Assembly (NCBI GenBank): GCA_963712235.1
Contig: CAVQHC010000017.1
Location: 142,348-206,347 of the forward strand
From: an uncultured delta proteobacterium
Lineage (GTDB): Bacteria > Myxococcota_A > Polyangia > Polyangiales > Houyiibacteriaceae
Length of the DNA: 64,000 bases
Direction of reading: 5' to 3'
Shown here: piece by piece, positions 4,072 to 59,421 of the stretch
Layout of the letters: each line of letters opens with the position of its first letter
Position numbering within the stretch: the stretch's first letter is position 1
Notes under the pieces: generated by a model
The model's database searches: none
Told to the model about the DNA's origin: nothing
Seen by the model: the letters and a program-made list of their open reading frames with translations, nothing else
Position numbers and translations under genes: made by a program

Positions 4072-4148
4072 CTGCTGGGGCTGCCGCGGGTGTTGGGGGA
4101 GGCGGTGTTCGGCTTGGGCTCCCGCGGGTGTTTGGGGGGGGTGGTTGA
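4072..4148. repeat. left stub of the GC-rich repeat array, cut off by the IS3 insertion
   Basis: Contains two copies of the sub-repeat GCTGCCGCGGGTGTTGG. It aligns by eye with the reverse complement of 12000-12095 and continues at 5411 after the IS. Confidence 0.75.
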
Positions 4149-4202
4149 TGGAGTTGACCCGGTTTCGTGGACACTCGCCCGCTTTCGGGCAAAGGAGTCC
4201 AC

Positions 4203-4520
4203 ATGCCTCAAAGACACAGGCCAGCGTACCCCGCGGAGTTCCGGGAGCGACTGGTGGAGCTGGTCCGCTCGGGACGCAGCCCGGAGGAGCTCGCGAGGGA
4301 GTTTGAGCCCTCGGCCCAGGCGATACGCAACTGGGTGGCACAGGCCGAGCGCGACACGGGCAAGCGAAGCGACGGTCTGACGACCCAGGAGCGCGAAGAG
4401 CTTCGGCGTCTTCGACGCGAAAACAAGACGCTCAAGGTTGAAAAAGAAATCTTGAAAAAAGCCGCCGCCTGGTTCGCGCAGGAGACCGATTCGGTTCCGC
4501 CCAAGAATTCGAATTCGTGA
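4203..4520 (+). CDS. IS3-family transposase OrfA (HTH)
   Basis: Reads MPQRHRPAYPAEFRERLVELVRSGRSPEELAREFEPSAQAIRNWV, then a leucine-zipper-like REELRRLRRENKTLKVEKEILKKAAAWF. The A6G run at 4455-4461 is the likely -1 slippery site. Confidence 0.85.
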   Translation: MPQRHRPAYPAEFRERLVELVRSGRSPEELAREFEPSAQAIRNWVAQAERDTGKRSDGLTTQEREELRRLRRENKTLKVEKEILKKAAAWFAQETDSVPPKNSNS

Positions 4521-5383
4521 GAGCGCATCAGGCTAAATATCCCGTGCGGACGCTTTGTCGGGTGCTCGGTGTCTCCCCGAGCGGCTACTACGCGTACGTG
4601 AAGCGTCCGGCGTCACGGCGTGCGGTCGAAGACGCGGGGCTCCTCGAGCGCATCGAGCACTTCCATGCGCGCTCTCGGGGTACGTACGGAGCGCCGCGCA
4701 TCCACCGCGACCTCCGCGAGGAGGACGCGGTGCGCGTGGGCCAAAAGCGCGTCGCACGGCTCATGCGGCAAGCCCAAATCGTCGGTATCAGTCGCCGCAA
4801 GCGGCGCGTGACGACGACCCGACGCGACGTCAACGGCCGACCGGCGCCTGACCTTGTCGATCGCGATTTCACGGCGACCGGCCCCGACCAGCTCTGGGTC
4901 GCGGACATCACTTACGTCCCGACCCACGCTGGCTTTTTGTACCTCGCGGTGGTCGTCGATGCGTGGAGCCGGCGCGTGGTCGGCTGGTCGATGGCCCATC
5001 ACCTGCGCACCGAGCTCGTCCTCACGGCGCTCGAGATGGCGCTTCAACAACGGCGGCCGGCCGACGTGATTCATCACTCCGACCAAGGCTGCCAATACAC
5101 GTCGTACGCCTTCGGCAAACGCTGCCGACAAGCGGGCGTCCGACCCTCGATGGGCTCGGTCGGCGACGCCTACGACAACGCCATGTGCGAGAGCTTCTTC
5201 GCCACCCTCGAGTGCGAGCTGCTCGACCGACGGCGCTTCCGCTCTCAGACTGAAGCGCGAATGGCCATCTTCGACTTCGTCGAAGGCTGGTACAATCCCA
5301 AGCGACGCCACTCGGCGCTCGATTACCTCTCACCCCTTCAATTCGAACGAATCAACCGAACCCCAATGCGCGCAAGCGCTTAA
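4517..5383 (+). CDS. IS3-family transposase OrfB (DDE integrase core), expressed as OrfAB by -1 frameshift
   Basis: Contains YPVRTLCRVLGVSPSGYY, WVADITYVPT, HHSDQGCQYTS and NAMCESFFATLECEL (DDE/rve core). The frame is -1 relative to orfA and is open upstream back to the A-run. Confidence 0.9.
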   Translation: MRAHQAKYPVRTLCRVLGVSPSGYYAYVKRPASRRAVEDAGLLERIEHFHARSRGTYGAPRIHRDLREEDAVRVGQKRVARLMRQAQIVGISRRKRRVTTTRRDVNGRPAPDLVDRDFTATGPDQLWVADITYVPTHAGFLYLAVVVDAWSRRVVGWSMAHHLRTELVLTALEMALQQRRPADVIHHSDQGCQYTSYAFGKRCRQAGVRPSMGSVGDAYDNAMCESFFATLECELLDRRRFRSQTEARMAIFDFVEGWYNPKRRHSALDYLSPLQFERINRTPMRASA

Positions 5384-5410
5384 CCGTCCACCGAAGCGGG
5401 TGAACTCCAT

Positions 5411-6007
5411 TGATGGGCTTGGTGGGTGGTTTGGTTTAGTTACACCGCCCGCCCACCCCCACCCGTAATCCTCCCTGGCGCGGCATTCGCTTCGCTCTGC
5501 CTTGCCGGCGCGTTCGCGCCGGGCTTCGCCCTTCGGGCTCGCGCTGCCGCGGGTGTTTGGTAGGGCGGGGGCGGGCGTCGCCGTTCGGCTTGGGTGTCAC
5601 CGTTCGGCTTGTGCTGCCGCGGGTGTTGGGGGGGCGGGTCTTGGGTGGGCGGCGTGGTACGGCTTGTTGACACCGCCCCGCCCACCCCCACCCGTAATCC
5701 TCCCTGGCGCGGCATTCGCTTCGCTCTGCCTTGCCGGCGCTTCGCGCCGGGCTTCGCCCTTCGGGCTCGCGCTGCCGCCTGCCGATTGGGAAGGTTGGTG
5801 GTCCTGTCTCCGTAGGGAGGGGCGCGACAAAAACCCGTCATGGGGTGGAGTCGACGTAACGAGTGACAATCTGCAAGACAGCAGCCACCGCAGATTGGCG
5901 CGAGTTCCGAGGCTCGGCTTGCGTGGTCCAGGCCCCCATGTGCTTCCGACCACATCTGCAAGCCGAGCCGTTCGATGGAACCCCGTGTCGGGTTTTTTCC
6001 GCGCCCC
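5411..6007. repeat. GC-rich composite repeat array (two R units plus a 189-bp hairpin module)
   Basis: R units lie at 5441-5550 and 5669-5778 (CACCCCCACCCGTAATCCTCCCTGGCGCGGCATTCGC...GCCGGCGCGTTCGCGCCGGGCTTCGCCCTTCGGGCTCGCGCTGCCGC). The hairpin module at 5819-6007 has 27-nt terminal inverted repeats. An inverted homologue lies at 11624-12095. Confidence 0.85.
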
Positions 6008-6011
6008 GGTT

Positions 6012-6689
6012 CTAGTCGACCGCTTGCGCTCGCCACTTGCGCAGGATGAGTATGCTGATCGCGGCGATCACGACTGCCGCGAGGATGAGGAAAGGCCAGA
6101 GCTGGTCCCAGGGCCAGGTCGCCACAGGGTGCTCTTCGATCCATTTCGCGACACGAACTCCGACCAGCGTCGTCATCAAGGTGAAGGGCGCGACGCCCAA
6201 GACGGTCGCGGCGAGGAACGGGACGAAGGCGACTCGCGACACGCCCAACGCCCACTGCACGGTGGGGGTCGTGTAGAAGATCAGGCGCAGCAGGAAGACC
6301 GTTCGGAATCCGTTCGTTTGGAGTCGCTCATCGAATCGTCGAATGCGAGGAGGGAGCCGTTGTTGAATCCAATCGCGCGCTACGAATCGCGCGACGAGGA
6401 ACGAAAACAAGCCGGTGCCAATCGTGCCGGCCCAGTTGAGCAGAAACGCCTCGGTCGGAGTCCAGATGAGCGGCGCGCTGAGAAGGAAGACGAGCCCGTT
6501 CACACCAAACGGCTGCAGGCATGTGTACGCTGCGATGAAGAGCACGCCACCCCAGGGCCCGGCCTTCTGAAACCAAATCCGCATCGAGGCAGGGTCGAGC
6601 TCCTGGTAGGCGCCGCTCGCGTAGATCCAGGCAACTGCCCCGGCCAGCAGCGCGGCGAATGCGATCTTCAACAGGCTTGCGCGATCCAC
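6012..6689 (-). CDS. TVP38/TMEM64 (DedA/SNARE-associated superfamily) membrane protein
   Basis: Polytopic membrane protein. Contains the family-typical stretch FLLNWAGTIGTGLFSFLVARFVARDWIQQRLPPRIRRFDERLQTNGFRTVFLLRLIF. Confidence 0.7.
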   Translation of the reverse strand: MDRASLLKIAFAALLAGAVAWIYASGAYQELDPASMRIWFQKAGPWGGVLFIAAYTCLQPFGVNGLVFLLSAPLIWTPTEAFLLNWAGTIGTGLFSFLVARFVARDWIQQRLPPRIRRFDERLQTNGFRTVFLLRLIFYTTPTVQWALGVSRVAFVPFLAATVLGVAPFTLMTTLVGVRVAKWIEEHPVATWPWDQLWPFLILAAVVIAAISILILRKWRAQAVD

Positions 6690-6776: not shown

Positions 6777-8157
6777 GTGCAGGACGCTGTAGCGCCCGGT
6801 TTGTCGGCCGCCGCGACCAGGCGACTTCCGGCCGTGCGCACCGAGGAGACGGCGCGCGAGTTTGGGGGCTCCTTTGGGGCTGCCTTCATCATGACGCTCT
6901 CGCATGCCCTGATGCTCTACCTCTGGATCGCGTGGCGCTTTCACGACGGAGCGGTGTTCTATCCGGTCTCGCTCTCCGATCTGGGACCGTTCTTCAGACG
7001 TGATTTGGGAGCAGATCGTGACCTACGCGTCACCGACTTGGAGCACGTTCGGCATCTACGGGGCGTTCCTGCTCGTGGAGGGATGGATGGCGGCTTACCT
7101 GCCGGGGTTGGAAATAAAGGGGCTGCCGATCCCGTCGCGGAACGGCCAACGGCTGGTCTACCGCTGCAACGGCATCACCGCGTGGTACCTCACGCTACTC
7201 GCTATCGCGATTTTGCACCTCAGCGGAGTCTTCCCTCTGGAGACGATCTACCAGCAGTTTGGCGCATTCATGATCACTGCGATGATCATCGCGAACGTCG
7301 TTGCGCTCCTCGTTTACTTCGGAGCCAGGGCAACCGGCAACGCGGAGCGGATGTCGGGGAACTTCCTTTACGACTTCTTCATGGGGGCTTGGCTCAATCC
7401 TCGGATCGGACCCTTGGACCTCAAAATGTGGGCGGAGGTCCGCGTCTCCTGGCTGACCCTCTTCTTGCTGACGGCCAGCGGCGCCGCACACCAATACGCG
7501 ACGTATGGCACGGTGAGCACGCCGATGATCTTCATGGTAGTCGCCCATTTTCTCTACACCAATGCCTGCATGAAGGGCGAGGAGTGCATCCCGACGACCT
7601 GGGACATCTTCTACGAGAAGTGGGGCTGGATGCTCGTCTTCTGGAACCTGGCGGGCGTGCCGTTCGTGTACTGTTTCAGCTCGATGTACATCGCATCGCG
7701 ACCGCCGTTCGAGCACTCTGCTGCGTTTACCGTGTTTTGTTTTCTGCTGCTGTTTGGCTCGTACTACGTCTGGGACACGGCGCAAAGCCAGCGAAACCGC
7801 TTTCGCATGCAGCTCAACGGCTCGTACGTGAAACGGAAGGCGTTCCCACAGTTGCCCTGGGGCACGCTGCACAACCCGCGCTACTTGGAAACCGAAGCCG
7901 GGTCCAAGCTACTCGTCGATGGCTGGTGGCGATACGCCCGAAAGATTCACTACACAGCGGACATTCTGATGGCGTTATCCTGGGGCCTGATTTGCGGCTT
8001 CGACCACTTCTTACCGTACCTCTACGTGACCTTCTTCGTGGTCATGATTCTGCACCGCGCCGGGCGGGACATCCGCAGGTGTAAGAAAAAGTACGGCGCA
8101 GACTGGGAGCGCTACTGTGAAGAAGTCCCCTACTTGTTCATTCCGTACGTGTTCTGA
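6777..8157 (+). CDS. ERG4/ERG24-family sterol reductase (C-14/delta-7 type), interrupted by an apparent +1 frameshift near 6996-7002
   Basis: The C-terminus LLVDGWWRYARKIHYTADILMALSWGLICGFDHFLPYLYVTFFVVMILHRAGRDIRRCKKKYGADWERYCEEVPYLFIPYVF is the family signature (ORF 7000..8157). The expected N-terminal segment REFGGSFGAAFIMTLSHALMLYLWIAWRFHDG is in the other frame (ORF 6777.., real only up to about 7001). Confidence 0.8.
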
Positions 8158-11110: not shown

Positions 11111-11172
11111 CCCGGCTCGGGGCAAGTGGTACCGGCTAGGCCCTGTGCCTGGCAAAAAAGACGCACCCGCAG

Positions 11173-11285
11173 GCGGCAGCGCGGGCCCGAAGGGCGAAGC
11201 CCGTCGCGAACGCGCCGGCAAGGCGAAACGCAGCGAACGCCGCGCCAGGGAGGATTACGGGTGGGCGTGGGCGGGCGGTGTAACC
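11173..11285. repeat. partial R-unit copy (inverted orientation)
   Basis: GCGGCAGCGCGGGCCCGAAGGGCGAAGCCCGTCGCGAACGCGCCGGCAAGGCGAAACGCAGCGAACGCCGCGCCAGGGAGGATTACGGGTGGGCGTGGGCGGGCGGTGTAACC is the reverse complement of the units at 5441-5550 and 5669-5778. Confidence 0.85.
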
Positions 11286-11295
11286 AAAACCGACT

Positions 11296-11385
11296 CTGGC
11301 ACTGGCACTGGCACTGGCACTGGCACTGGCGCTGGCACTGGCACTGGCACTGGCGCTGGCGCTGGCGCTGGCGCTGGCGCTGGCC
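11296..11385. repeat. hexanucleotide microsatellite (CTGGCR)x15
   Basis: Fifteen perfect 6-bp units, CTGGCA or CTGGCG, read directly from the sequence. Confidence 0.95.
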
Positions 11386-11622
11386 GATCAGCTCAAGAGA
11401 GCTGCACAGAGCGTGGTGCTAAACATCGCGGAGGCTCGAGGGAACGATGCGGGGAATGCGAGAGCGCGGTTCTCAACCGCTTGCGGTTCTGCAAAAGAAG
11501 TACGGGCCGCCCTAAACGTCGCAAGTGACTGGGGCTACATCGAGAGCCACACGGCAACTCACCTCGACGGGAAGCTCGACGAGGTGTGCGCCATCACATG
11601 GTGCTTGGGCAGAAAGCGCTAA
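11380..11622 (+). pseudogene. N-terminally truncated four-helix-bundle protein (23S rRNA IVS protein / Avd-like family)
   Basis: LADQLKRAAQSVVLNIAEARGNDAGNARARFSTACGSAKEVRAALNVASDWGYIE...LDEVCAITWCL matches helices 2-4 of the family. Helix 1 is missing. In frame, the upstream sequence is the microsatellite (ALALAL...) with no start codon. Confidence 0.55.
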
Positions 11623-11623
11623 C

Positions 11624-12095
11624 GGGGCGCGGAAAAAAGCGCGACACGGGGCTGCGTCGAACGGCTCGGCTTGCAAATGTGGTCGGTTGCACTTGGGAGC
11701 TTGGACCACGCAAGCCTCGCCTCGGCGCGCGCGCCAATCTGGGGTGGTTGCTGTCTTGCAGATTGGCACTTGCGACGTCGACTCCGCCCCATATCGCGCT
11801 TTTTTCCGCGCCCCTCCATACGGAGACAGGACCAACAACCTTCCCAAAAAGCAGGCGGCAGCGCGAGCCGGAACGGCGAAGCCCGGCGCCTTGGCGCCGG
11901 CAAGGCAGAGCGCAGCGAATGCCGCGCCAGGGAGGATTACGGGTGGGGGTGGGCGGGCGGTGTAACTAAACCGAACCACGCCACCCACCCAACACCCCAC
12001 CTCCAAACACCCGCGGCAGCACAAGCCGTACGGCGCCGCCCACCCCCCCCAAACACCCGCGGCAGCACAGGCCGCCCAACCACCCGCACCGCAAG
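11624..12095. repeat. GC-rich composite repeat array, inverted copy (191-bp hairpin module, R unit, tail)
   Basis: The hairpin module at 11624-11814 has 28-nt terminal inverted repeats: GGGGCGCGGAAAAAAGCGCGACACGGGG paired with CCCCATATCGCGCTTTTTTCCGCGCCCC. The R unit is at 11855-11966. The tail carries two copies of CAAACACCCGCGGCAGCACA. Confidence 0.85.
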
Positions 12096-29400: not shown

Positions 29401-32400
29401 ACGGGCATCATCCGCCGTGGGAGGCGATCGCTATGCCCAACTCGGCCGCTTGTTTGCCGATTTCCTCGACCAAGGGATGGAGATCTATCGCGGCGGGACC
29501 GCCGTCGATTCCGGAGAGCCGGTGGTCGTCACCGGAGCGACCATCGGACTGCCCGGCGGGGAGAAGGTCTTTGCGGACGAAAACGTCGACCGGATGCTGC
29601 ACGGTCAGAGCTTCATCGACGCGATCCCGGTGGGGCTTCGTCGTGCGATGGCGGACAAGAAGATCACCCGCCTCGTGAAATCGGAAAAAGGCGGGGCGCG
29701 CTTCGAAACGATCGACTCGCCCGCCGACGTGATCAAGCTCGCCGGCCGGGCTGGCGACATCGCCTTGTCGAGCGATTTCGGCATTCCCGAGGAGCGCGCG
29801 GCCGCGATGGACTCGACGACACGAATGGCCGTTGCCGCAGGAGTGGAGGCGCTACGCGACGCGGGGATTCCGCTCGTGATGCACTACAAGACGACGACCA
29901 AGGGAACGAAGCTTCCCGACCGCTGGGGCTTACCCGCGGAGATGCAAGACGAGACCGGCGTCATCTTCGGTTCGGCGTTCCCCGGCTCCGACATGTTCAT
30001 GGGCGAGGCTCGGCGATACTACGAGAGCGAGACGCAGGAGAGACTGCTCGATGAGCTGCGCAGCTTAAGGGCGCGCATGGCAAGCAACGGCGGCGACCCG
30101 CTAGGCGCAGAAATCGACCGTCGAATCGCGGAAATCGAAAGCGACCGTCAGCGCGATCCGTACACGTTCGACCGGCGCTTCCTGTTCAAAGCGCTGTCGA
30201 TGGGCCACTCTCAGCTCGCGGAGTACATCGGCGCGCGCGGGCCGAACACCCAAATCAACTCGGCGTGTGCCAGTGGAACGCAGGCTGTGGCGCTAGCCGA
30301 GGATTGGATCATGCGCGGTCGGTGCAGGCGCGTCGTGGTCGTCACCGCGGACAACGTGACGAGCAACAATTTGATGGAATGGATCGGTGCGGGTTTCCTG
30401 GCCAGCGGCGCCGCGGCGACGGACGAGGTACTCGAGGACGCCGCCCTTCCCTTCGATCGTCGACGTCACGGCCTCATCCTTGGAATGGGCGCTTCGGGCA
30501 TGGTCATCGAAAGCGCGGACGCGGCCCGCGAACGCGGTCTGAGGCCAATCGCACAGGTGCTCGGTACGGTGACCGCCAACAGCGCCTATCACGGCAGCCG
30601 TTTGAACATCGAGCACATTCAGGGTTTGATGGAAAAGCTGGTCGCAGACTGTGAGGCGCGGCACGGCATCGATCGCGCGGCGATCGCGCCGAACACGGTA
30701 TTCGTTTCACACGAGACGTACACACCGGCACGCGGCGGTAGCGCTCAGGCGGAGATCAGCGCGCTTCGCAAGGTCTTTGGCGCCAACGCGGACAGCATCG
30801 TAATCGCAAACACGAAGGGCATGACGGGTCATGCGATGGGTGCGGGGGTGGAAGACGCGACCGCCATGAAGATTCTCGAGACGGGTTTGGTCCCGCCGGT
30901 GGCAAACTTCAAAGAGGTGGACCCGGAGCTAGGTGCGCTAAACCTCTCGAGAGGCGGGAGCTACCCCGTTCAGTATTCACTTCGACTGGGCGCTGGGTTC
31001 GGCTCCCAGATTAGCCTGTCGCTCTGCCGTTGGGTCCCGAGCCCAGACGGGCGTCGACCGGCGCCAAGGGAGCTGGGCTACACGACTCGGGTCGAGGATC
31101 GAGCGCTCTTCGAACGCTGGGTTGCGTCCGCCACCGGCTACGCCTCGCCGGAGTTGGAAGTGGTGAATCGGACCCTGCGGGTGAAGGATCAGGGTCCCTC
31201 GGCCGCAGTCGCGGTGTCAGCGTCAACGGCAGTGTCAGCGTCAGTGCCAGCGTCAGTGCCAGCGTCAGCGCCAGTGCCGGCGTCAGCGCCAGTGCCGGCG
31301 CCGGCGCCGGCCATCGACCCCGTGACGGCGAAGGTCTTGTCGATCGTCTCCGAGCAGACGGGATATCCCTCCGACATGCTCGACCTCGAGCTCGACCTCG
31401 AGGCCGACCTCGGGATCGACACCGTCAAGCAGGCGGAGACCTTTGCTGCAGTGCGCGAGGCGTACGATATCGAGCGCGAGGACAATCTCGAGCTTCGGGC
31501 GTTCCCGACGCTCGGGCACGTGGTTCAGTTCGTCCGCGACCGCCGACCAGACTTGATGGCCGCGCCATTGCCAGCGCCAGCGTCAGCGCCAGCGTCAGTG
31601 TCAGTGCCAGTGCCAGTGCCAGTGCCGGCAATCGACCCCGTGACGGCGAAGGTCTTGTCGATCGTGTCCGAGCAGACTGGGTATCCCTCCGACATGCTCG
31701 ACCTCGAGCTCGATCTCGAAGCAGACCTCGGGATCGACACCGTCAAACAAGCAGAGACCTTTGCTGCAGTGCGCGAGGCGTACGATATCGAGCGCGAGGA
31801 CAATCTCGAGCTTCGGGCGTTCCCGACCCTCGGGCACGTGGTTCAGTTCGTCCGCGACCGCCGACCAGACTTGGCGGCAGCGCCAGTGTCAGCGCCAGCG
31901 CGAGTGTCAGCGTCAGTGCCAGCGCCAGCGCAGCGACCCGGTGACCGCGAAGGTACTCGCGATCGTGTCCGAGCAGACTGGGTATCCCTCCGACATGCTC
32001 GACCTCGAGCTCGACCTCGAAGCGGACCTCGGGATCGACACCGTCAAGCAGGCCGAGACCTTTGCCGCCGTGCGCGAGGCGTACGATATCGAGCGCGAGG
32101 ACAATCTCGAGCTTCGCGACGTTCCCGACCCTCGGGCACGTGGTGCAGTTCGTCCGCGACCGCCGCCCGGATCTGGTGCCAGCGCCAGCGCCAGCGTCAG
32201 TGCCAGCGTCAGTGCCAGCGCCGGCGTCAGAAGATTTGATCACCCAGAAGGTGCTCGAAGTCGTCGCGTCGGTCACCGGCTACCCGCCCGTAATGCTCGA
32301 GCTCGACCTGGACCTCGAGGCGGACCTCGGAATCGACACGGTCAAGCAAGCCGAGACTTTTGCCGCCGTGCGCGAAGCGTATGGAATTCCTCGCGACGAC

Positions 32401-35022
32401 AAGCTCGAGCTTCGAAATTTCCCGACGCTCCATCACGTCATCGCCTGGGTGAAAGAATCCATTCCCGAGGCTGCGGCGTCGGCAGCCGCTCAGGCCGAAG
32501 CCGCCGACGCTTCACCTGCCGCAGTGGCAGCGCACGAACCGGCGGAAGGGCTGCGCCGTGTTCCCGTGGCCGTGCTCAGGCCTCCGCTATCCGCCTGCAA
32601 GCCGACCGGCGTCAATTTCGTCGAAGGGGCACGCGTCGTCGTGATGGCCGATCGGGGACCGGTCGGAAAGGCGCTGGTCAAGCAGTTGAAGAAGCTCGGC
32701 GTCGAGCTGCTCGTCGTCGACGACACACCTTCTGCGGAAGAGCTCAGTCTGAGGCTCGAAGGCTGGATGAAGGACGGTCCGATCCTCGGCGTTTACTGGC
32801 TCCCGGGGCTCGATCGAGAAGACCCAATCGCCGATCTCTCCCCGGACGACTGGACCAGCGCGGTCCAAAGGCGCGCCAAGCTCTTGTTCACGACGATGCG
32901 CACGCTTTACGAGCAGATCTCGGGGCCGGGCAGGTTCCTGATGTCGGCGACGCGCTTTGGCGGGAAGCACGGCTTCGACGAGCCTGGCGCGGTGGCGCCA
33001 CTTGGAGGCGCCGTTGGCGGCTTCACCAAGACTTACAAACGCGAGAAACCCGAGGCGACGGTCAAGGTCGTCGACTTCGAGGCGAAAGTGAAGGCAAGCA
33101 CCGTCGCCGAACGACTCATCGCGGAGACCTTGTCGGACCCCGGGGCATGCGAGCTTGGCTACACCGGAGACGAACGCTGGGCGATCACGGCATCTTTTGA
33201 AGCGGCGCCGACCTCGCGCCCGTTCGCACTCGGGCAAGACAGCGTCTTTGCGATCACTGGCGCTGCCGGGTCGATCGTGTCTGCGATTGTCCAGGACCTG
33301 GCCAAGGCGTCGGCTGGAACCTTCCATCTGCTCGACCTCACGCCCGAGCCGGATGCCGACGACCCCGACCTTCAACGCTTCGCGAGCGACCGCGATGGCC
33401 TTCAGCGTGAGCTCTTCGAGCGGCTGAAGCAGAGCGGAGAGAAGGCGACGCCGGTAGCGGTGCAACGCCTGCTCAGCGAGCTCGAGCGAAAGCACGCTGC
33501 GCTCCGGGCCATCGAATCGGTTCGCGCTGCGGGCGGCAAGGTGCACTATCATTCCGTAAATCTGCTGGATCGCGAGGCGGTCGCTGCGACGATCGAGGTC
33601 ATTCGGGAGCAGAGCGGACGTATCGATGCCCTGGTGCACGCGGCCGGGCTCGAGATCAGTCACTTCCTACCCGACAAGAAACCGTCGGAGTTCGATTTGG
33701 TCTTCGATGTTAAGGCGACCGGCTGGTATCACCTCTTGTCGTCGATCGGAGACATGCCGCTCGGCGCCGCGGTGGTCTTCAGCTCGATTGCGGGTCGATT
33801 CGGCAATGGCGGTCAAACCGATTACAGCGCCGCCAACGAGCTTCTGGCCAAGTCGGTTTCGAGCTTCCGAAACGCGCGGCCAGGCACGCGGGGCATCGTC
33901 GTCGACTGGACCGCCTGGGCAGACATCGGCATGGCATCCCGCGGATCCATCCCCAAGATGATGGAGTTGGCCGGCATCGACATGTTGAAGCCTGCGGACG
34001 GCCTTCCGGTCGTACGTACCGAGCTCGAAGCGGGCACATCCGGTGAGGTCGTGATTGGCGGCGCGCTCGGAATCCTCATGCAGGAATGGGACGAAACCGG
34101 CGGGCTCGACCCGAGGAACCTTCAAGCGGTCCGTCGAGGCCCGATGAGCACGCATCTGGTCTCGATGGGCATTCATTCCGGTCTCCAGGTCGAGACTACG
34201 CTGGACCCGCGGGAGCAGCCTTTCCTCTACGACCACAAGATCGGCGGTACGGCCGTCTTGCCGGGTGTGATGGGGCTCGAGGGCTTCGGTGAGATCAGTG
34301 AGGCGCTTTTTCCCGACTGGCACGTCCGAGCTATTGAAGGCGTCGATTTCCTCGCGCCGTTCAAGTTCTATCGGGACGAGCCCAGAACGCTAACGCTGAC
34401 CGCGCAGTTCACCACCGACGGCAACGAGCTGCTGGCGCGCTGCCGCTTGATCGGCACGCGACCGATCCTGGGTAGAGACGAGGTGAAGACCCATTTCGCC
34501 GCAACCGTCCGGCTCGCGCGCGAGCCCGTCGACAGACACAGATCGGAAGCCCCCCCTCACGCCTCCGACGCGAGCGTGGCCGACAAGGACATCTACCAGG
34601 TTTACTTTCATGGCCCGGCCTATCAGGTGTTGGACACCGCATGGCGTGACAATGGCGTGGTGGTCGGCCGAATGCGCGAGCAACTCCCCGACGATCGCCA
34701 GCCAGCGGACCTCGAAATGGTGACGGAGCCACGGCTGGTCGAGCTCTGCTTCCAGACCGCAGGTGTATGGCAGATCGGCACGACCGGCCGGATGGGACTG
34801 CCGCAACACATCGACGAGCTCGAATGCGTTCGGTCCGCCGATGCGGTCGAAGGGCGGCTGCACGCCGTGGTGAGTCCGCGGGATGGTGGAAAATCGTTCG
34901 ACGCGCATGTGACGGATGAAGCCGGCAACCTCTACGTGGTACTCCGTGGATACCAGACGGCGGAGCTCCCCGAGGACGTGGACCCAGAAAAGCGGAAGCC
35001 TCTCCGCGCGGCGATGGACTGA
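26483..35022 (+). CDS. iterative-type type I polyketide/fatty-acid megasynthase, KS-AT-KS-ACPx4-KR-DH, carrying two +1 frameshifts around ACP3
   Basis: KS1 spans 26498-27890 (Cys codon 27131 in DAACASA; His 27533 and 27653). AT spans 28284-29160 (GQGSQ; GHSLGEY, Ser codon 28580). KS2 spans 29515-31035 (INSACASG, Cys codon 30266; [20 protein letters not shown]). The ACP array spans 31316-32460. KR spans about 32610-34060 (ITGAAGSIV; Tyr codon 33823). The hot-dog DH spans about 34140-35019 ([14 protein letters not shown], His codon 34234). ORF pieces: 26483..32239, 31761.. (ACP3 body) and 32062..35022. Confidence 0.9.
31316..32460 (+). repeat. tandem array of four carrier-protein (ACP-like) coding repeats with Pro/Ala/Ser/Val linkers
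   Basis: The unit [79 protein letters not shown] is repeated with offsets of 318, 301 and 298 nt. Copies 1-3 are nearly identical in DNA. Copy 4 has diverged. Confidence 0.9.
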
Positions 35023-43877: not shown

Positions 43878-46513
43878 AGGAGACCAGATCGTCGCCGCCG
43901 TCGATCAGCGTAGACGCGCCGAGGCAGTAGAGGTCCGGATCCCCGGGCGTGGCGCTGGTGTAGAGCGGGTCGACGCTGTACTCCCAGAACGATCCGGGAG
44001 GGAGACAGGCGCAGGCAAGGCACTCGTCACCACCGCAGGAGCCGCCGCTGTTGTTGAAGTCGTTGTTGCCGTAGGACGTGGAGGGTGACAAGGGCGCACG
44101 ACACGACGAGCTGGTGTCGAACGTGACGACCTTGTCGCCGTTGCAGACCGAAATCCGCGTTACCGGTGACGTTGTTGTTGCGGAGGCAAACCTCGAAAGA
44201 GTCGTCCCCGTAGAACTTGAGGCCGGAGCCGCCGTTGTCGGCGATCGTGTTGTGATCGACCATGAGCCCTGTAACCTTGCGGATTTGCACTCCGTCCATC
44301 GCGTTGAGCCCCACCGTGTTGCCGGCGACGACCGAGCCGAGTCGAATCCTTGATGATGATGGCCGCGACTTCGTCGGTTGGCGACATTCATCCCACCGGT
44401 AATGACGTTGTCCAGAATCTGAGCGCTGTCCCCGCCATCGACGTAAGATCCCGCGGCGCTCGAACCCTTCGAACACGCAGTTCCGCACGGTGTTGTTGTC
44501 GCCCTGTGATCAGCGCGATGTCCTCGGCGTTCAACACGTTCACCACGTGCACGCCGTCGATCACATTGTTGTCCCCGCTGACTTCGAAGACCAAGCGATC
44601 GCCACCGGAGTTCGACCGTCAGAGTCGCGCCCGCGAGCTGCCGAATGGTCAGCGCCCGCATCGTCATCGAGCTTGGGTGCGCCAGTGGTCATGGTGAAGT
44701 CACCTAGAACGATGTAGTCGTCGCCCTGCTGTACTGTTGGCTGAGTCGAGCGCCGTCTCGTACGACGCTTCGCTGGTCGCCACGAGACACCGAGACCCAC
44801 CGCTGTTCGGGTTGGTTCCGCAGAAGGTCTCGAAGCAGTCGACTTGGGGGTCACCATCGGAATTCGTCGTGCAATCGAGATCGCAAGTCGGAACCGCATC
44901 GTCACAATCGCTATCGGTGCAGTAGCCGTCTGCATCAACATCGGTACAGACGGCTGCGCAGAGCGGCTTGTCGTCATCGCAATCGCCCAGCGCGCAGGTT
45001 CCGTCCCCGTCGGCGTCCAGGCCGTCATTGCAGGGATCGAACACGGTGACGGCGCAGTCGTCGCAGCTGTCGCCATCCGTATCCGCGCAGACCGAGCCGT
45101 CCCCGTCGTTCGAGTCGGTCGTCGTGTCGACGCAGCCCACGTTGCCCCCGGTTGCCGTCGCCCAGACCATCGCCGTCGGCGTCGACGCAATCATCACCGC
45201 TGTCGCAAATACCGTCCGCGTCGCTGTCTACACCGTCGTCCAGCGGATCGAAGGAGCCCGCGCTGCAGTCATCGCAGCCGTCGCCATCGGTGTCGGCGCA
45301 GATGGTGGCTACGCCGACGTTCGAATCGGTCGTCGCGCTGGCACAGCCCACGTTGCCCCCGGTGCCATCACCCAGGCCATCGCCATCCGTATCGACGCAG
45401 ACGTCGCCGGCGTCGCAAATGCCGTCGCTGTCGGTGTCCGTGCCATCGTCCAGCGGATCGAAAGATCCACTGCTGCAGTCGTCGCAGCTATCGCCATCGG
45501 TATCGGCGCAGACCGCTCCGTCCCCGTCGTTGGAATCCGTCGTGGTGTCGACGCAGCCTGCATTGCCCCCGGTGCCATCACCCAGGCCATCGTCGTCCGA
45601 ATCGACGCAGACGTCGCCGGCGTCGCAAATGCCGTCGCTGTCGGTGTCCGTGCCGTCGTCCAGCGGATCGAAAGGTCCACTGCTGCAGTCGTCGCAGCTA
45701 TCGCCATCGGTATCGGCACAGACCGCTCCGTCCCCGTCGTTGGAATCTGTCGTGGTGTCGACGCAGCCTGCGTTGCCCAGCGTGCCATTTCCCAGTCCGT
45801 CGCCATCGCCATCGACGCAGACGTCGCCGGCATCGCAAATGCCGTCCGCGTCGCTGTCTACGCCGTCGTCCAGCGGGTCAAAAGACCCACTGCTGCAGTC
45901 GTCACAGCTATCGCCATCGGTGTCGGCACAGACCATGCCGTCGTCATCATTCGAGTCGGTCGTCGCATTGACGACAGCCCGTATTGCCCAAGGTGCCGTC
46001 GCCCAGGCCGTCGGAGTCGAGGTCTACGCAATCGCCATTTCCACCGGAACACTCGCCGGTTTCGATCGAACACTGTTGGTTCGCAAAGCAACCTTCGCCG
46101 GAGAACGCGCCGAGCTCGACGAAGTAGCTATCGAGAGGCGCGGCGTCGATGCTCACATCGTCACAGCCTGCGCCGACCACTGCACAGTTGGAATCCTGGG
46201 CAACGGCGTAAAGCCCGTATTGGCCGGGTTCGGGGATGCCGATCGCTGGCCCTGCACTTCCATCGCGGAGAACGAACATGCTGTCGAGGGCGTCGCCGGG
46301 GCGGTCTCCCATCACGACCGAATCGCAGGAACCCAGCAGGTACACCTCGACGCGAACGGCTTCGTCGCGAGCTGCCCGGGGCACTCCGGGTGCGAAGGTC
46401 ACGTCCACACTGAGCCCCTCTGAGCCCGCTTCGCCGCCGCAGCCCGCTGTGACCAACGCCAGCAGGCCGATCGTAGCGGCTGCGATGCGTAAGTTATGGA
46501 AGGACGTATTCAC
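43789..46513 (-). pseudogene. lipoprotein with thrombospondin-type-3-like Ca-binding repeats and a C-terminal parallel beta-helix region, broken by about nine frame changes
   Basis: The signal plus lipobox is LALVTAGCGG. 70-aa repeats read DTDGDSCDDCSSGSFDPLDDGTDTDSDGICDAGDVCVD.DGDGLGDGT.GN.GC. Beta-helix segments (NTVGLNAMDGVQIRKVTGLMVDHNTIADNGGSGLKFY; VFEVSGDNNVIDGVHVVNVLN; SYVDGGDSAQILDNVITGG) are scattered over all three minus frames. These are ORFs 45947..46513, 45025..45936, 44700..45197, 44561.., 44388..44594, 44027..44488 and 43789..44667. Confidence 0.6.
44975..46020. repeat. 210-bp tandem coding repeats (about 5 units) of the TSP3-like protein
   Basis: The unit start GACGCAGACGTCGCCGG recurs at 45394, 45604 and 45814, an exact 210-nt period. 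More diverged units flank these. Confidence 0.85.
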
Positions 46514-58770: not shown

Positions 58771-59421
58771 CTACTGTTCGATGCAATAGAGGCCTAGCAA
58801 AGTGGAGCAGGCCGGAGTGATGTTCTCGGTCCAGGTCGACGTCGTCGAGTTGCTCGCGCCGCATAGGGCGACGACGGCCATGGAGTCCGTCGTGAAAGCT
58901 GCGCAGTCACTGCTGGGATACGAGTCGCCCGTGGCGAGGGTTCCGGTCCAAATCTCGCCGCGGCGGAACACGCCGTTCGCGTCCAGGTCGATCGGAGCGA
59001 GGATCGAGCCGTCGACGAGATCGGCCCAGTCGTCGGCCACCCTGGTCCCGTCCACGAGGACGTACGGGCCGCTGGCTTGGGTTACGCGATTCGCGACAGG
59101 CGAGGCGATCGTCGAGAGCCAGGCTTTGAACTCGCCGTCGAGACCTGCGGCCAGGGCTTGCGCCGCGCAGATCGCATCGGCGCCGGCGATGCCGCCGAGG
59201 TTCGCGCTCTGGTTGGTGTCGGTTCGAAAGATCCGCCGCTCGGCCGTGCCGGCGTCAGGGCCAGCGTCAGGGCCAGCGTCAGGGCCAGCGTCAGGGCCGG
59301 CGTCAGGGCCAGCGTCAGTGGCTGCGTCAGGCCCAGCGCCGGTGACGGCATCTGTGCCCGTACAGGCGGGGGATGCGGTCATGGCAAGGGCGAGAAGGAG
59401 GTTGAGCACGCTGCGTTTCAT
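58771..59421 (-). CDS. lipoprotein with (DAGP)n linker and endostatin-like / DUF1554-type domain
   Basis: Signal [20 protein letters not shown] (ATG 59421). [29 protein letters not shown]...SDCAAFTT...[13 protein letters not shown] aligns by eye with endostatin ([32 protein letters not shown]...SYCETWRT...SCHHAYIVLCIEN), including all four Cys. Confidence 0.6.
   Translation of the reverse strand: [216 protein letters not shown]
59249..59330. repeat. 12-bp tandem repeat (GCGTCAGGGCCR) encoding (DAGP)n on the minus strand
   Basis: Read directly: GGCGTCAGGGCCAGCGTCAGGGCCAGCGTCAGGGCCAGCGTCAGGGCCGGCGTCAGGGCCAGCGTCAG... Confidence 0.9.

Follow-up and report, generated by a model that had tools for sequence, protein, structure and literature searches.

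Our results define a family of non-coding elements of 190 nt or slightly more, here called module B, that is real, widespread and undescribed and comprises at least 154 full copies. Selection acts on a branched fold formed by one strand of B, and B constitutes the gene-proximal, polar end module of composite intergenic cassettes in which other upstream modules can substitute. Two copies lie in the window, the whole 64,000-nucleotide stretch of DNA analysed here. They are 81–82% identical and were first noticed as a module of about 190 bases with inverted arms (5819-5846 and 5980-6007 in copy 1), a description that proved exact in every quoted sequence and coordinate of both copies. The original prediction also placed copy 1 against the stop codon of the TVP38 gene and copy 2 against that of a four-helix-bundle fragment, and the distances are 4 nt and 1 nt, respectively. 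Three further features had been overlooked, namely a longer homology on the 5' side, a U-U mismatch in copy 1 and conserved boundary motifs.

Module B and its distribution

The two window copies, the helices of copy 1 and the abutting genes are as follows.

5819..6007, plus strand: module B copy 1; MFE -108.3 kcal/mol, z -9.96; 192 bits with covariance model R1
5819-5846 with 5980-6007, plus strand: P1, closing helix of copy 1
5850-5854 with 5972-5976, plus strand: P2 of copy 1, a 5-bp helix
5855-5909, plus strand: P3 hairpin of copy 1, with a conserved 15-17-nt loop (AAGACAGCAGCCACC)
5911-5969, plus strand: P4/P5 hairpin of copy 1, with a variable loop
5867-5874/5890-5897 and 5911-5922/5958-5969, plus strand: inner stems of copy 1
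5803..5818, plus strand: 5' boundary motif of copy 1 (CTGTCTCCGTAGGGA), which adjoins nearly all copies regardless of the sequence further upstream
6012..6689, minus strand: VTT/TVP38 gene, convergent, stop codon 4 nt from the 3' end of copy 1
11624..11814, minus strand: module B copy 2, of a different P1 subfamily from copy 1; MFE -122.3 kcal/mol, z -12.8; 221.9 bits with R1
11413..11622, plus strand: 23S_rRNA_IVP four-helix-bundle gene, C-terminal fragment, convergent, stop codon 1 nt from the 3' end of copy 2

The fold of the window copies begins with a P1 of about 28 bp, in which an A run is paired to a U run and the arm of copy 1 has a single mismatch (U-U), and continues through a purine-rich internal loop and P2 to a three-way junction that carries two hairpins, P3 and P4 with P5. 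Shuffled versions of copy 1 reach -68.8 +/- 4.0 kcal/mol against -108.3 kcal/mol for the native sequence, and none of 200 shuffles folds as well as either copy. The opposite strands of the two copies fold worse (z -7.3 for copy 1 and -7.5 for copy 2). A coding function for B was rejected given arm indels of 1-3 nt between copies. An exact-match look-up of the neighbouring VTT protein of the window returned no record.

A scan of species-representative genomes with a 19-mer common to both window copies gave at least 107 loci, and among those listed 66 hold B, the remainder being chance matches in coding regions of unrelated bacteria. The genomes that carry B, frequently at more than one locus per MAG, come from at least 17 species of uncultured Polyangiales/Myxococcota MAGs. 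A metagenome scan with a different motif gave at least 120 loci; among the matches listed all hold B, 109 of them at full length. Two alignment sets were built from these scans, one of 56 distinct copies from 17 MAG species and one of 98 distinct metagenome copies. Occurrence at a single locus, which had been put forward as the outcome that would refute the element, is thus not the case, with at least 154 distinct full copies in hand. No copy of B was found among viral contigs, phage records or plasmid records. The Rfam comparison proposed at the outset gave no match to the window at the gathering score in Rfam 15 and nothing in 12 further loci, and when the threshold was relaxed to E values of up to 10 over 5350-6060 only chance microRNA matches appeared, on a hairpin upstream of module A copy A2 (described below). 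A tRNA/tmRNA scan returned nothing, and a literature search found no description of B. With at least 154 aligned examples of a 190-nt fold, 25-32 covarying pairs and no entry in Rfam, B is a well-supported new structured motif of a poorly studied, uncultured branch of the myxobacteria, and covariance model R1 can be used to annotate it.

Copies within a genome are diverged, the closest pair being 97% identical and none identical, and for 30 of the 56 copies the nearest relative lies in another species. This makes the subfamilies old, with no recent burst visible. Many copies lie at contig ends, and B elements probably explain many of the contig breaks in Polyangiales MAGs. At several loci (cited here by L number) a partial tandem B follows a few bases after a full copy; the partial copy comprises the 3'-terminal ~48 nt in L034 (7619-7666), L097 (140-187) and L098 (3271-3316), and a 3' part of ~108 nt in L042 (902-1010) and L119 (3009-3116).

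Selection on a branched fold of one strand

Selection on secondary structure, as originally proposed, is strongly supported by the numerous copies and by covariation far above controls. RNAalifold applied to a MAFFT alignment of the 56 MAG copies, one of the checks first suggested, recovers the same fold, with 97.6% of cells paired and two-sided change at 25 of 60 pairs. The covariation score is 0.314, compared with 0.04-0.07 when partners are slid by 1-3 columns, and none of 500 shuffles reaches any of the measures. Because the 19-mer used to obtain this set predetermines one strand of P4, the analysis was repeated on the 98 metagenome copies. The fold is again the same, with 97.7% of cells paired (37-43% in slid controls) and two-sided change at 32 of 60 pairs, and here P2 covaries too (A-U 57, G-C 40), likewise outer P4 (C-G 56, G-C 41), bearing in mind that both alignments include related sequences, so that cell counts overstate the independent events. 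Three points speak against an artefact: the slid controls, the use of two sets fished independently of each other, and the occurrence of multiple pair types within single columns.

The pairing is specific to one strand. G-U and U-G pairs outnumber A-C and C-A oppositions by 202 to 15 in the 56 copies and by 463 to 30 in the 98 copies, and in P3 one U-G pair occurs in 55 of 56 copies of the first set and in all 98 of the second. The sense strand is also the more stable in 54 of the 56 copies (-117.2 compared with -108.5 kcal/mol). This excess of G-U over A-C means that a single strand folds, as RNA or single-stranded DNA, and excludes the symmetric DNA cruciform that had been offered as one source of the selection.

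Within B, the closing helix P1 (about 26-30 bp) is the most variable part and drifts by compensatory changes, with arm variants that include AAAAA/UUUUU, GGCGG/CCGCC, GGGGG/CCCCC and GAAUUC/GAAUUC. The junction, P3 and the P3 loop (AAGACAGCAACCACC) are nearly invariant, and the P4/P5 loop is variable. This pattern of conservation is the reverse of that of a transposon end. The arm difference first observed between the window copies, CCCG in copy 1 replaced by GCGCG in copy 2 on both arms with pairing kept, was read correctly and the compensation is genuine, but it does not record a change in situ, as the two copies represent different old subfamilies common to other species. In two species B occupies the same orthologous spacer, which separates convergent E2- and exbD-like genes (L041, 6541-6729; L107, 7247-7438). 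It abuts the exbD-like stop codon in each, and the two copies differ in P1 subfamily and in linker, either through compensatory evolution in situ or through replacement. A search for pseudoknots or long-range covariation within B returned only subfamily correlations. Pairing of the P3 loop with the linker or 5' motif (CTGTCT, GGTGGT) was considered and dismissed, as copies with other loops keep the same motif and no covariation was seen.

Composite cassettes at gene ends

Homology between the window copies extends ~430 nt 5' of B (5591-5818 compared with 11815-12042) and ends exactly at the 3' end of B. The window copies are consequently parts of one larger repeated cassette and not independent 190-bp insertions. 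Two such cassettes, each in the order D repeats, module A, linker and B, lie inverted and 5.6 kb apart in the window, with their B ends touching gene ends. Their remaining parts are listed below.

5413..5552, plus strand: module A copy A1, an extra A unit absent from the 95-97% identical contig L228
5641..5781, plus strand: module A copy A2, in the orientation of B copy 1 and 37 nt upstream of it
11852..11992, minus strand: module A copy A3, upstream of B copy 2 and in the same orientation
11170..11303, minus strand: module A copy A4, with no B of its own, between a hexamer array and a sulfatase gene
5782..5802, plus strand: type 1 linker (GGGAAGGTTGGTGG...) between A2 and the 5' motif of B
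5553..5640 (5543-5640 at the widest) and 4080-4143, plus strand, and 11993-12075, minus strand: D repeats (CCGTTCGGCTTGTGCTGCCGCGGGTGTT, then a G run), in tandem with A and forming the cassette end furthest from B
4146-5413: IS3-family element with orfA (4167-4520) and orfB (4517-5383) and inverted ends of ~28 bp starting TGATGGAGTT

Module A is a second repeat family of ~140 nt, with four copies in the window, that may occur without B; at least 37 matches, some of them partial, were found across the window and the loci of the first scan (at least 107). It folds on the same strand as B, with an invariant G-U pair, three hairpins that show compensatory changes and loops of UUCG or UGCG closed by C-G, and it has no match in Rfam. 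In A2 the C-rich 5' half pairs with a G-rich stretch just upstream and is followed by three small hairpins, one with a UUCG loop. The type 1 linker recurs at copy 2 (11830-11851) and at many other loci. D repeats take the form GCTGCCGCGGGTGTT followed by a G run, with 8 matches where 0.41 are expected, and the window and contig L228 (95-97% identical) have different numbers of them.

Across the 56 loci, module A occupies the 5' side of B in 25, in fixed order and orientation. Other 5' neighbours are a palindromic module of ~150 nt, (CTGGCA/CTGACA)n hexamer arrays and, occasionally, four-helix-bundle genes. The palindromic module runs from GGAGGACGGCTCGCGACGGGCGTGCTCGCGA to CCCATCCCGAGCCGTCCTCC; it lies directly 5' of B in L010, L021, L022, L046, L096 and others and is sometimes found on the 3' side of B. 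CTGGCA/CTGACA arrays border B on either side at many loci (for example L010, L074, L096 and L101), and similar arrays occur within long ORF regions of the window (31186-32250 and 59218-59392). A (CTGGCA/CTGGCG)n array at 11285-11385 of the window, in frame as (Leu-Ala)n, stands in place of the N-terminal half of the four-helix-bundle gene. Four-helix-bundle genes adjoin B in only 8 loci, in both orientations and with no reverse transcriptase noted, and a link to Avd-like four-helix-bundle proteins and diversity-generating retroelements was set aside on these grounds. Pieces of such a gene lie on both sides of B in L093 (7376-7998), and in L101 (4704-5278) a short B-like hairpin (4945-5037, 26.6 bits) lies at the meeting point of two such genes in convergent orientation.

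Even close relatives differ by gain and loss of cassettes, as some of them have empty orthologous sites. The spacer between the VTT gene and the adjoining alpha/beta hydrolase (abhydrolase) gene illustrates this presence/absence polymorphism, with a whole cassette gained at this site and B alone missing in L229.

L228, VTT 99% identical to the window: spacer holds B, linker, A and three D repeats
L229, VTT 88% identical: spacer holds A and only the last 9 nt of B
L230, L232 and L235, VTT 83%, 80% and 73% identical: spacer without A or B
L231 and L233, VTT 79% and 76% identical: spacer of 62-64 nt, empty

Compared with L228, the window has one additional A-D unit and the IS3 element. The latter is a later insertion; it sits in the G-rich part of the cassette, is absent from L228 and has ends unrelated to those of B.

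The placement of B relative to genes is polar. Based on gene calls from a simple ORF and third-position G+C caller, which are crude, 99 of the 125 ORFs that lie closest to the 3' end of B are convergent with it, on the other strand; the intervening gap has a median of 22 nt and does not exceed 30 nt in 54 cases. On the 5' side the closest ORF is 180-280 nt away. As the 3' end of B is usually found no more than about 20 nt from a stop codon of the opposite strand, the folding strand of B is antisense to the abutting gene. Where both neighbours could be called (72 copies), the genes around B are convergent in 34, tandem and antisense to B in 28, tandem and sense to B in 8 and divergent in 2. Two head-to-head copies of B occur between convergent genes in L117 and L175, each copy touching one stop codon. 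The abutting genes are mutually unrelated housekeeping genes whose translated C-termini, compared by eye, resemble those of rpoD, groEL, guaB, uvrA, exbD and a 2-oxoacid dehydrogenase E2; one orthologue may abut B in one genome and face the far end of a cassette in another.

The boundaries of B are equally regular. A motif of 13-16 nt, (C/A)TGTCNNCGTAYGGA, stands before the 5' arm of P1 in almost every copy, and the 3' arm is followed by GGT; among 138 copies, A occupies position -1 of the 5' boundary in 132, G position -3 in 122 and G position -7 in 121. Copy boundaries had been singled out as the place to look for target-site duplications, and those of the same 138 copies show none; the longest word shared by the two 24-nt flanks of a copy averages 4.28, compared with 4.06 when flanks of different copies are combined. 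The 3 kb around each of about 150 copies contain no recurrent family of transposases, reverse transcriptases or integrases; the neighbours that do recur are orthologous housekeeping genes. Neither TnpA, TnpB nor an IS110 recombinase was found over the same distance. No RAYT (Y1) gene was found in blocks of up to 8 kb around copies, and no parent element with B-type ends across 235 loci.

Function and mobility of module B

Strand, position, head-to-head pairs and the A-run/U-run variants together suggest that B acts as a polar RNA terminator or insulator, a reading that we favour tentatively and with confidence that falls a little short of even. The cassette strand would be transcribed towards the gene, either by read-through from a convergent gene or from the promoter region on the far side, and at the border of the gene the B RNA would adopt a fold of extreme stability. 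This structure would then end transcription, or block 3' exonucleases, before antisense RNA enters the coding region. The near-palindromic helix with its A run and U run could also end the mRNA of the abutting gene itself. The conserved junction core is a predicted protein-binding site, and the factor that binds it may also place copies of the cassette at further gene ends. For the 28 tandem contexts this reading must assume some origin of the antisense transcription. Were B to act in this way, its copies would mark the borders of transcription units.

Terminator-like features are unevenly distributed among the subfamilies. An A run and U run resembling those of a two-way terminator are present in about half of copies and the rest have no U run; a U tract follows the G+C-rich hairpin in the subfamilies with an A run and U run, to which both window copies belong, and is lacking in the GGCGG/CCGCC, GGGGG/CCCCC and GAATTC subfamilies. 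A simple terminator scan called a U-run site only in window copy 2. A scan of both window cassettes for sigma-70-type promoters found none, and the conserved 5' half of module A (TTACAC...CGTAAT) was rejected as a promoter given its spacing of 18-20 nt and its pairing with the upstream G-rich segment. Two further points weigh against termination as the role of B. Termination alone gives no reason for a conserved three-way core and loop, since a plain hairpin would be enough. Further, the mRNA of the abutting gene would carry the reverse complement of B, with A-C mismatches at three conserved positions, and transcription of this reverse complement is likely to occur, judging from a stop codon only 0-30 nt away.

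The terminator or insulator reading thus leaves the conserved core and the spread of B unexplained. Both are explained if B is a selfish, non-autonomous mobile element whose one-strand fold, as single-stranded DNA or an RNA intermediate, serves as substrate for an unlinked enzyme acting in trans, such as a recombinase, a reverse transcriptase or an HUH/Y1 transposase (of REP-RAYT or IS200/IS605 type). Only well-folded copies would then be copied, hence the kept structure, and the host would gain nothing. This is possible but somewhat unlikely, and the two readings are compatible. Many dispersed copies per genome, the gain of a cassette at one orthologous site, the lack of target-site duplication and a strand-specific pairing tolerant of G-T are all consistent with such an element, as are the short conserved motif at the 5' boundary, the fixed polarity relative to the target gene end and the partial tandem copies of the 3' 48 nt beside full copies; a conserved core with a variable closing helix would also suit recognition by a protein. 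Against this, no recurrent transposase, reverse transcriptase or integrase family accompanies B in the 3-kb surroundings of about 150 copies, no genome holds identical copies (97% at most) or signs of a recent burst, and in REPINs it is the ends that are conserved, not the core as in B. An IS608-like mechanism would moreover put the folding strand on the lagging-strand template and so orient rpoD and groEL head-on to replication. The original prediction called the module MITE-like or structured-RNA-like. A classical MITE, a deletion derivative of a DDE transposon recognised by its terminal inverted repeats and generating target-site duplications, finds some likeness in the small size, the terminal inverted repeats of ~28 bp, the many copies and the intergenic location of B. 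It is nevertheless very improbable, since target-site duplications are absent, the pairing is strand-specific, conservation is lowest in the terminal repeats, which change by compensation, and highest in the interior, no transposase recurs within 3 kb of the copies, and no parent with these ends was found in 235 loci, the only transposon nearby, the IS3 element, being a later insertion with unrelated ends. Alternatively, the A-linker-B cassettes might form a family of independent genes, each encoding a structured non-coding RNA some 330-600 nt long whose P3 loop acts in trans on a protein or RNA. The fixed order and orientation of A and B in 25 of 56 loci, their folding on the same strand, the UNCG tetraloops of A, the conserved P3 loop sequence and the terminator-like end of B in many copies would fit such genes, which we consider quite improbable; no promoter was found, the 5' half of A is hairpinned with the upstream G-rich stretch and is not a free promoter region, and many copies of B have no A, being preceded instead by a hexamer array, another palindromic module or, immediately, the end of a gene. 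A trans-acting RNA would also be unusual in having dozens of diverged paralogues in one genome, and no covarying long-range or loop pairing was found. Two further candidates were discarded, a group II intron remnant (GAGCCGT looks like the beginning of domain V), which has no Rfam intron match, and an integron attC site, as the copies are scattered, do not form cassette arrays and lack the GTTRRRY core.

Among known repeats, ERIC elements of enterobacteria and comparable imperfect palindromes that are transcribed are intergenic, 100-200 nt long, form long RNA hairpins with compensatory changes and are dispersed next to gene ends. B is likewise dispersed in non-coding intergenic copies near gene ends with a hairpin kept by compensatory substitutions, but differs in its three-way junction with conserved core and loop, its variable closing helix, its fixed polarity with the 3' end at a convergent stop codon and its place as one module of larger cassettes; the sequences are unrelated and the phylum is different. 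REP units measure 20-40 nt, a REPIN is a simple doublet hairpin with conserved ends, and RAYT is a Y1 transposase. Like REP, BIME and REPIN sequences, B is palindromic, extragenic and found at gene 3' ends and between convergent genes. It also resembles BIMEs in its mosaic combination with other motifs, and REP and REPIN in its compensatory hairpins, its lack of target duplication and a slow, old population as opposed to recent bursts. With ~190 nt, a branched conserved interior and a variable closing helix it is nonetheless distinct from REP and REPIN. The Correia/NEMIS elements of Neisseria are MITEs with a TA target duplication and conserved ends; they are co-transcribed with neighbouring genes and have roles as terminators and RNase III substrates. 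B shares their size class and terminal inverted repeats of about 26-28 bp, but has no duplication, variable ends and a conserved core.

Two-way Rho-independent terminators offer another parallel, as B combines a G+C-rich helix with an A run and U run in about half of copies and is located from a few to about 30 nt after stop codons and between convergent genes. In B, however, the helix encloses a conserved branched core of 130 nt, an extra covarying helix of 9 bp lies outside the U run and half of copies have no U run. Palindrome-associated elements of the IS200/IS605 type and IS110 bridge RNAs share with B the folding of one strand, the lack of target duplication and a short conserved boundary sequence. 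B is distinguished from these by having no TnpA, TnpB or IS110 recombinase nearby and by loops that do not match the flanks beyond chance; guide-like matches of the P3 and P4 loops to either flank score the same for own and mismatched flanks (for example 4.73 and 4.68). Rfam includes RNA models for IS605-type elements, and in the loci compared B matches neither these nor any other Rfam model. Polar docking at stop codons, a conserved core within a drifting closing helix and transient modular cassettes set B apart from any described bacterial repeat family. B and its cassette could even constitute a new class of structured element, with a novel recognising factor and polar placement behind stop codons, representing either a new targeting mechanism that leaves no target-site duplication and has no enzyme nearby or an RNA device that shields genes from antisense transcription, although we regard this as unlikely.

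Some minor features of the window were also observed. The region 6777-8157 on the plus strand is split into overlapping ORFs in different frames (6777-8084 and 7000-8157), the first with no Pfam match, and its orthologue in L228 and other loci is a protein of 459-467 residues of the ERG4/ERG24 family (sterol reductase-like); the split may reflect a frameshift or a sequence error. Tandem repeats that apparently lie in coding sequence are present at 31246-32414 (3-4 copies of ~300-nt units) and at 44993-45993 (5 copies of 210-nt units).
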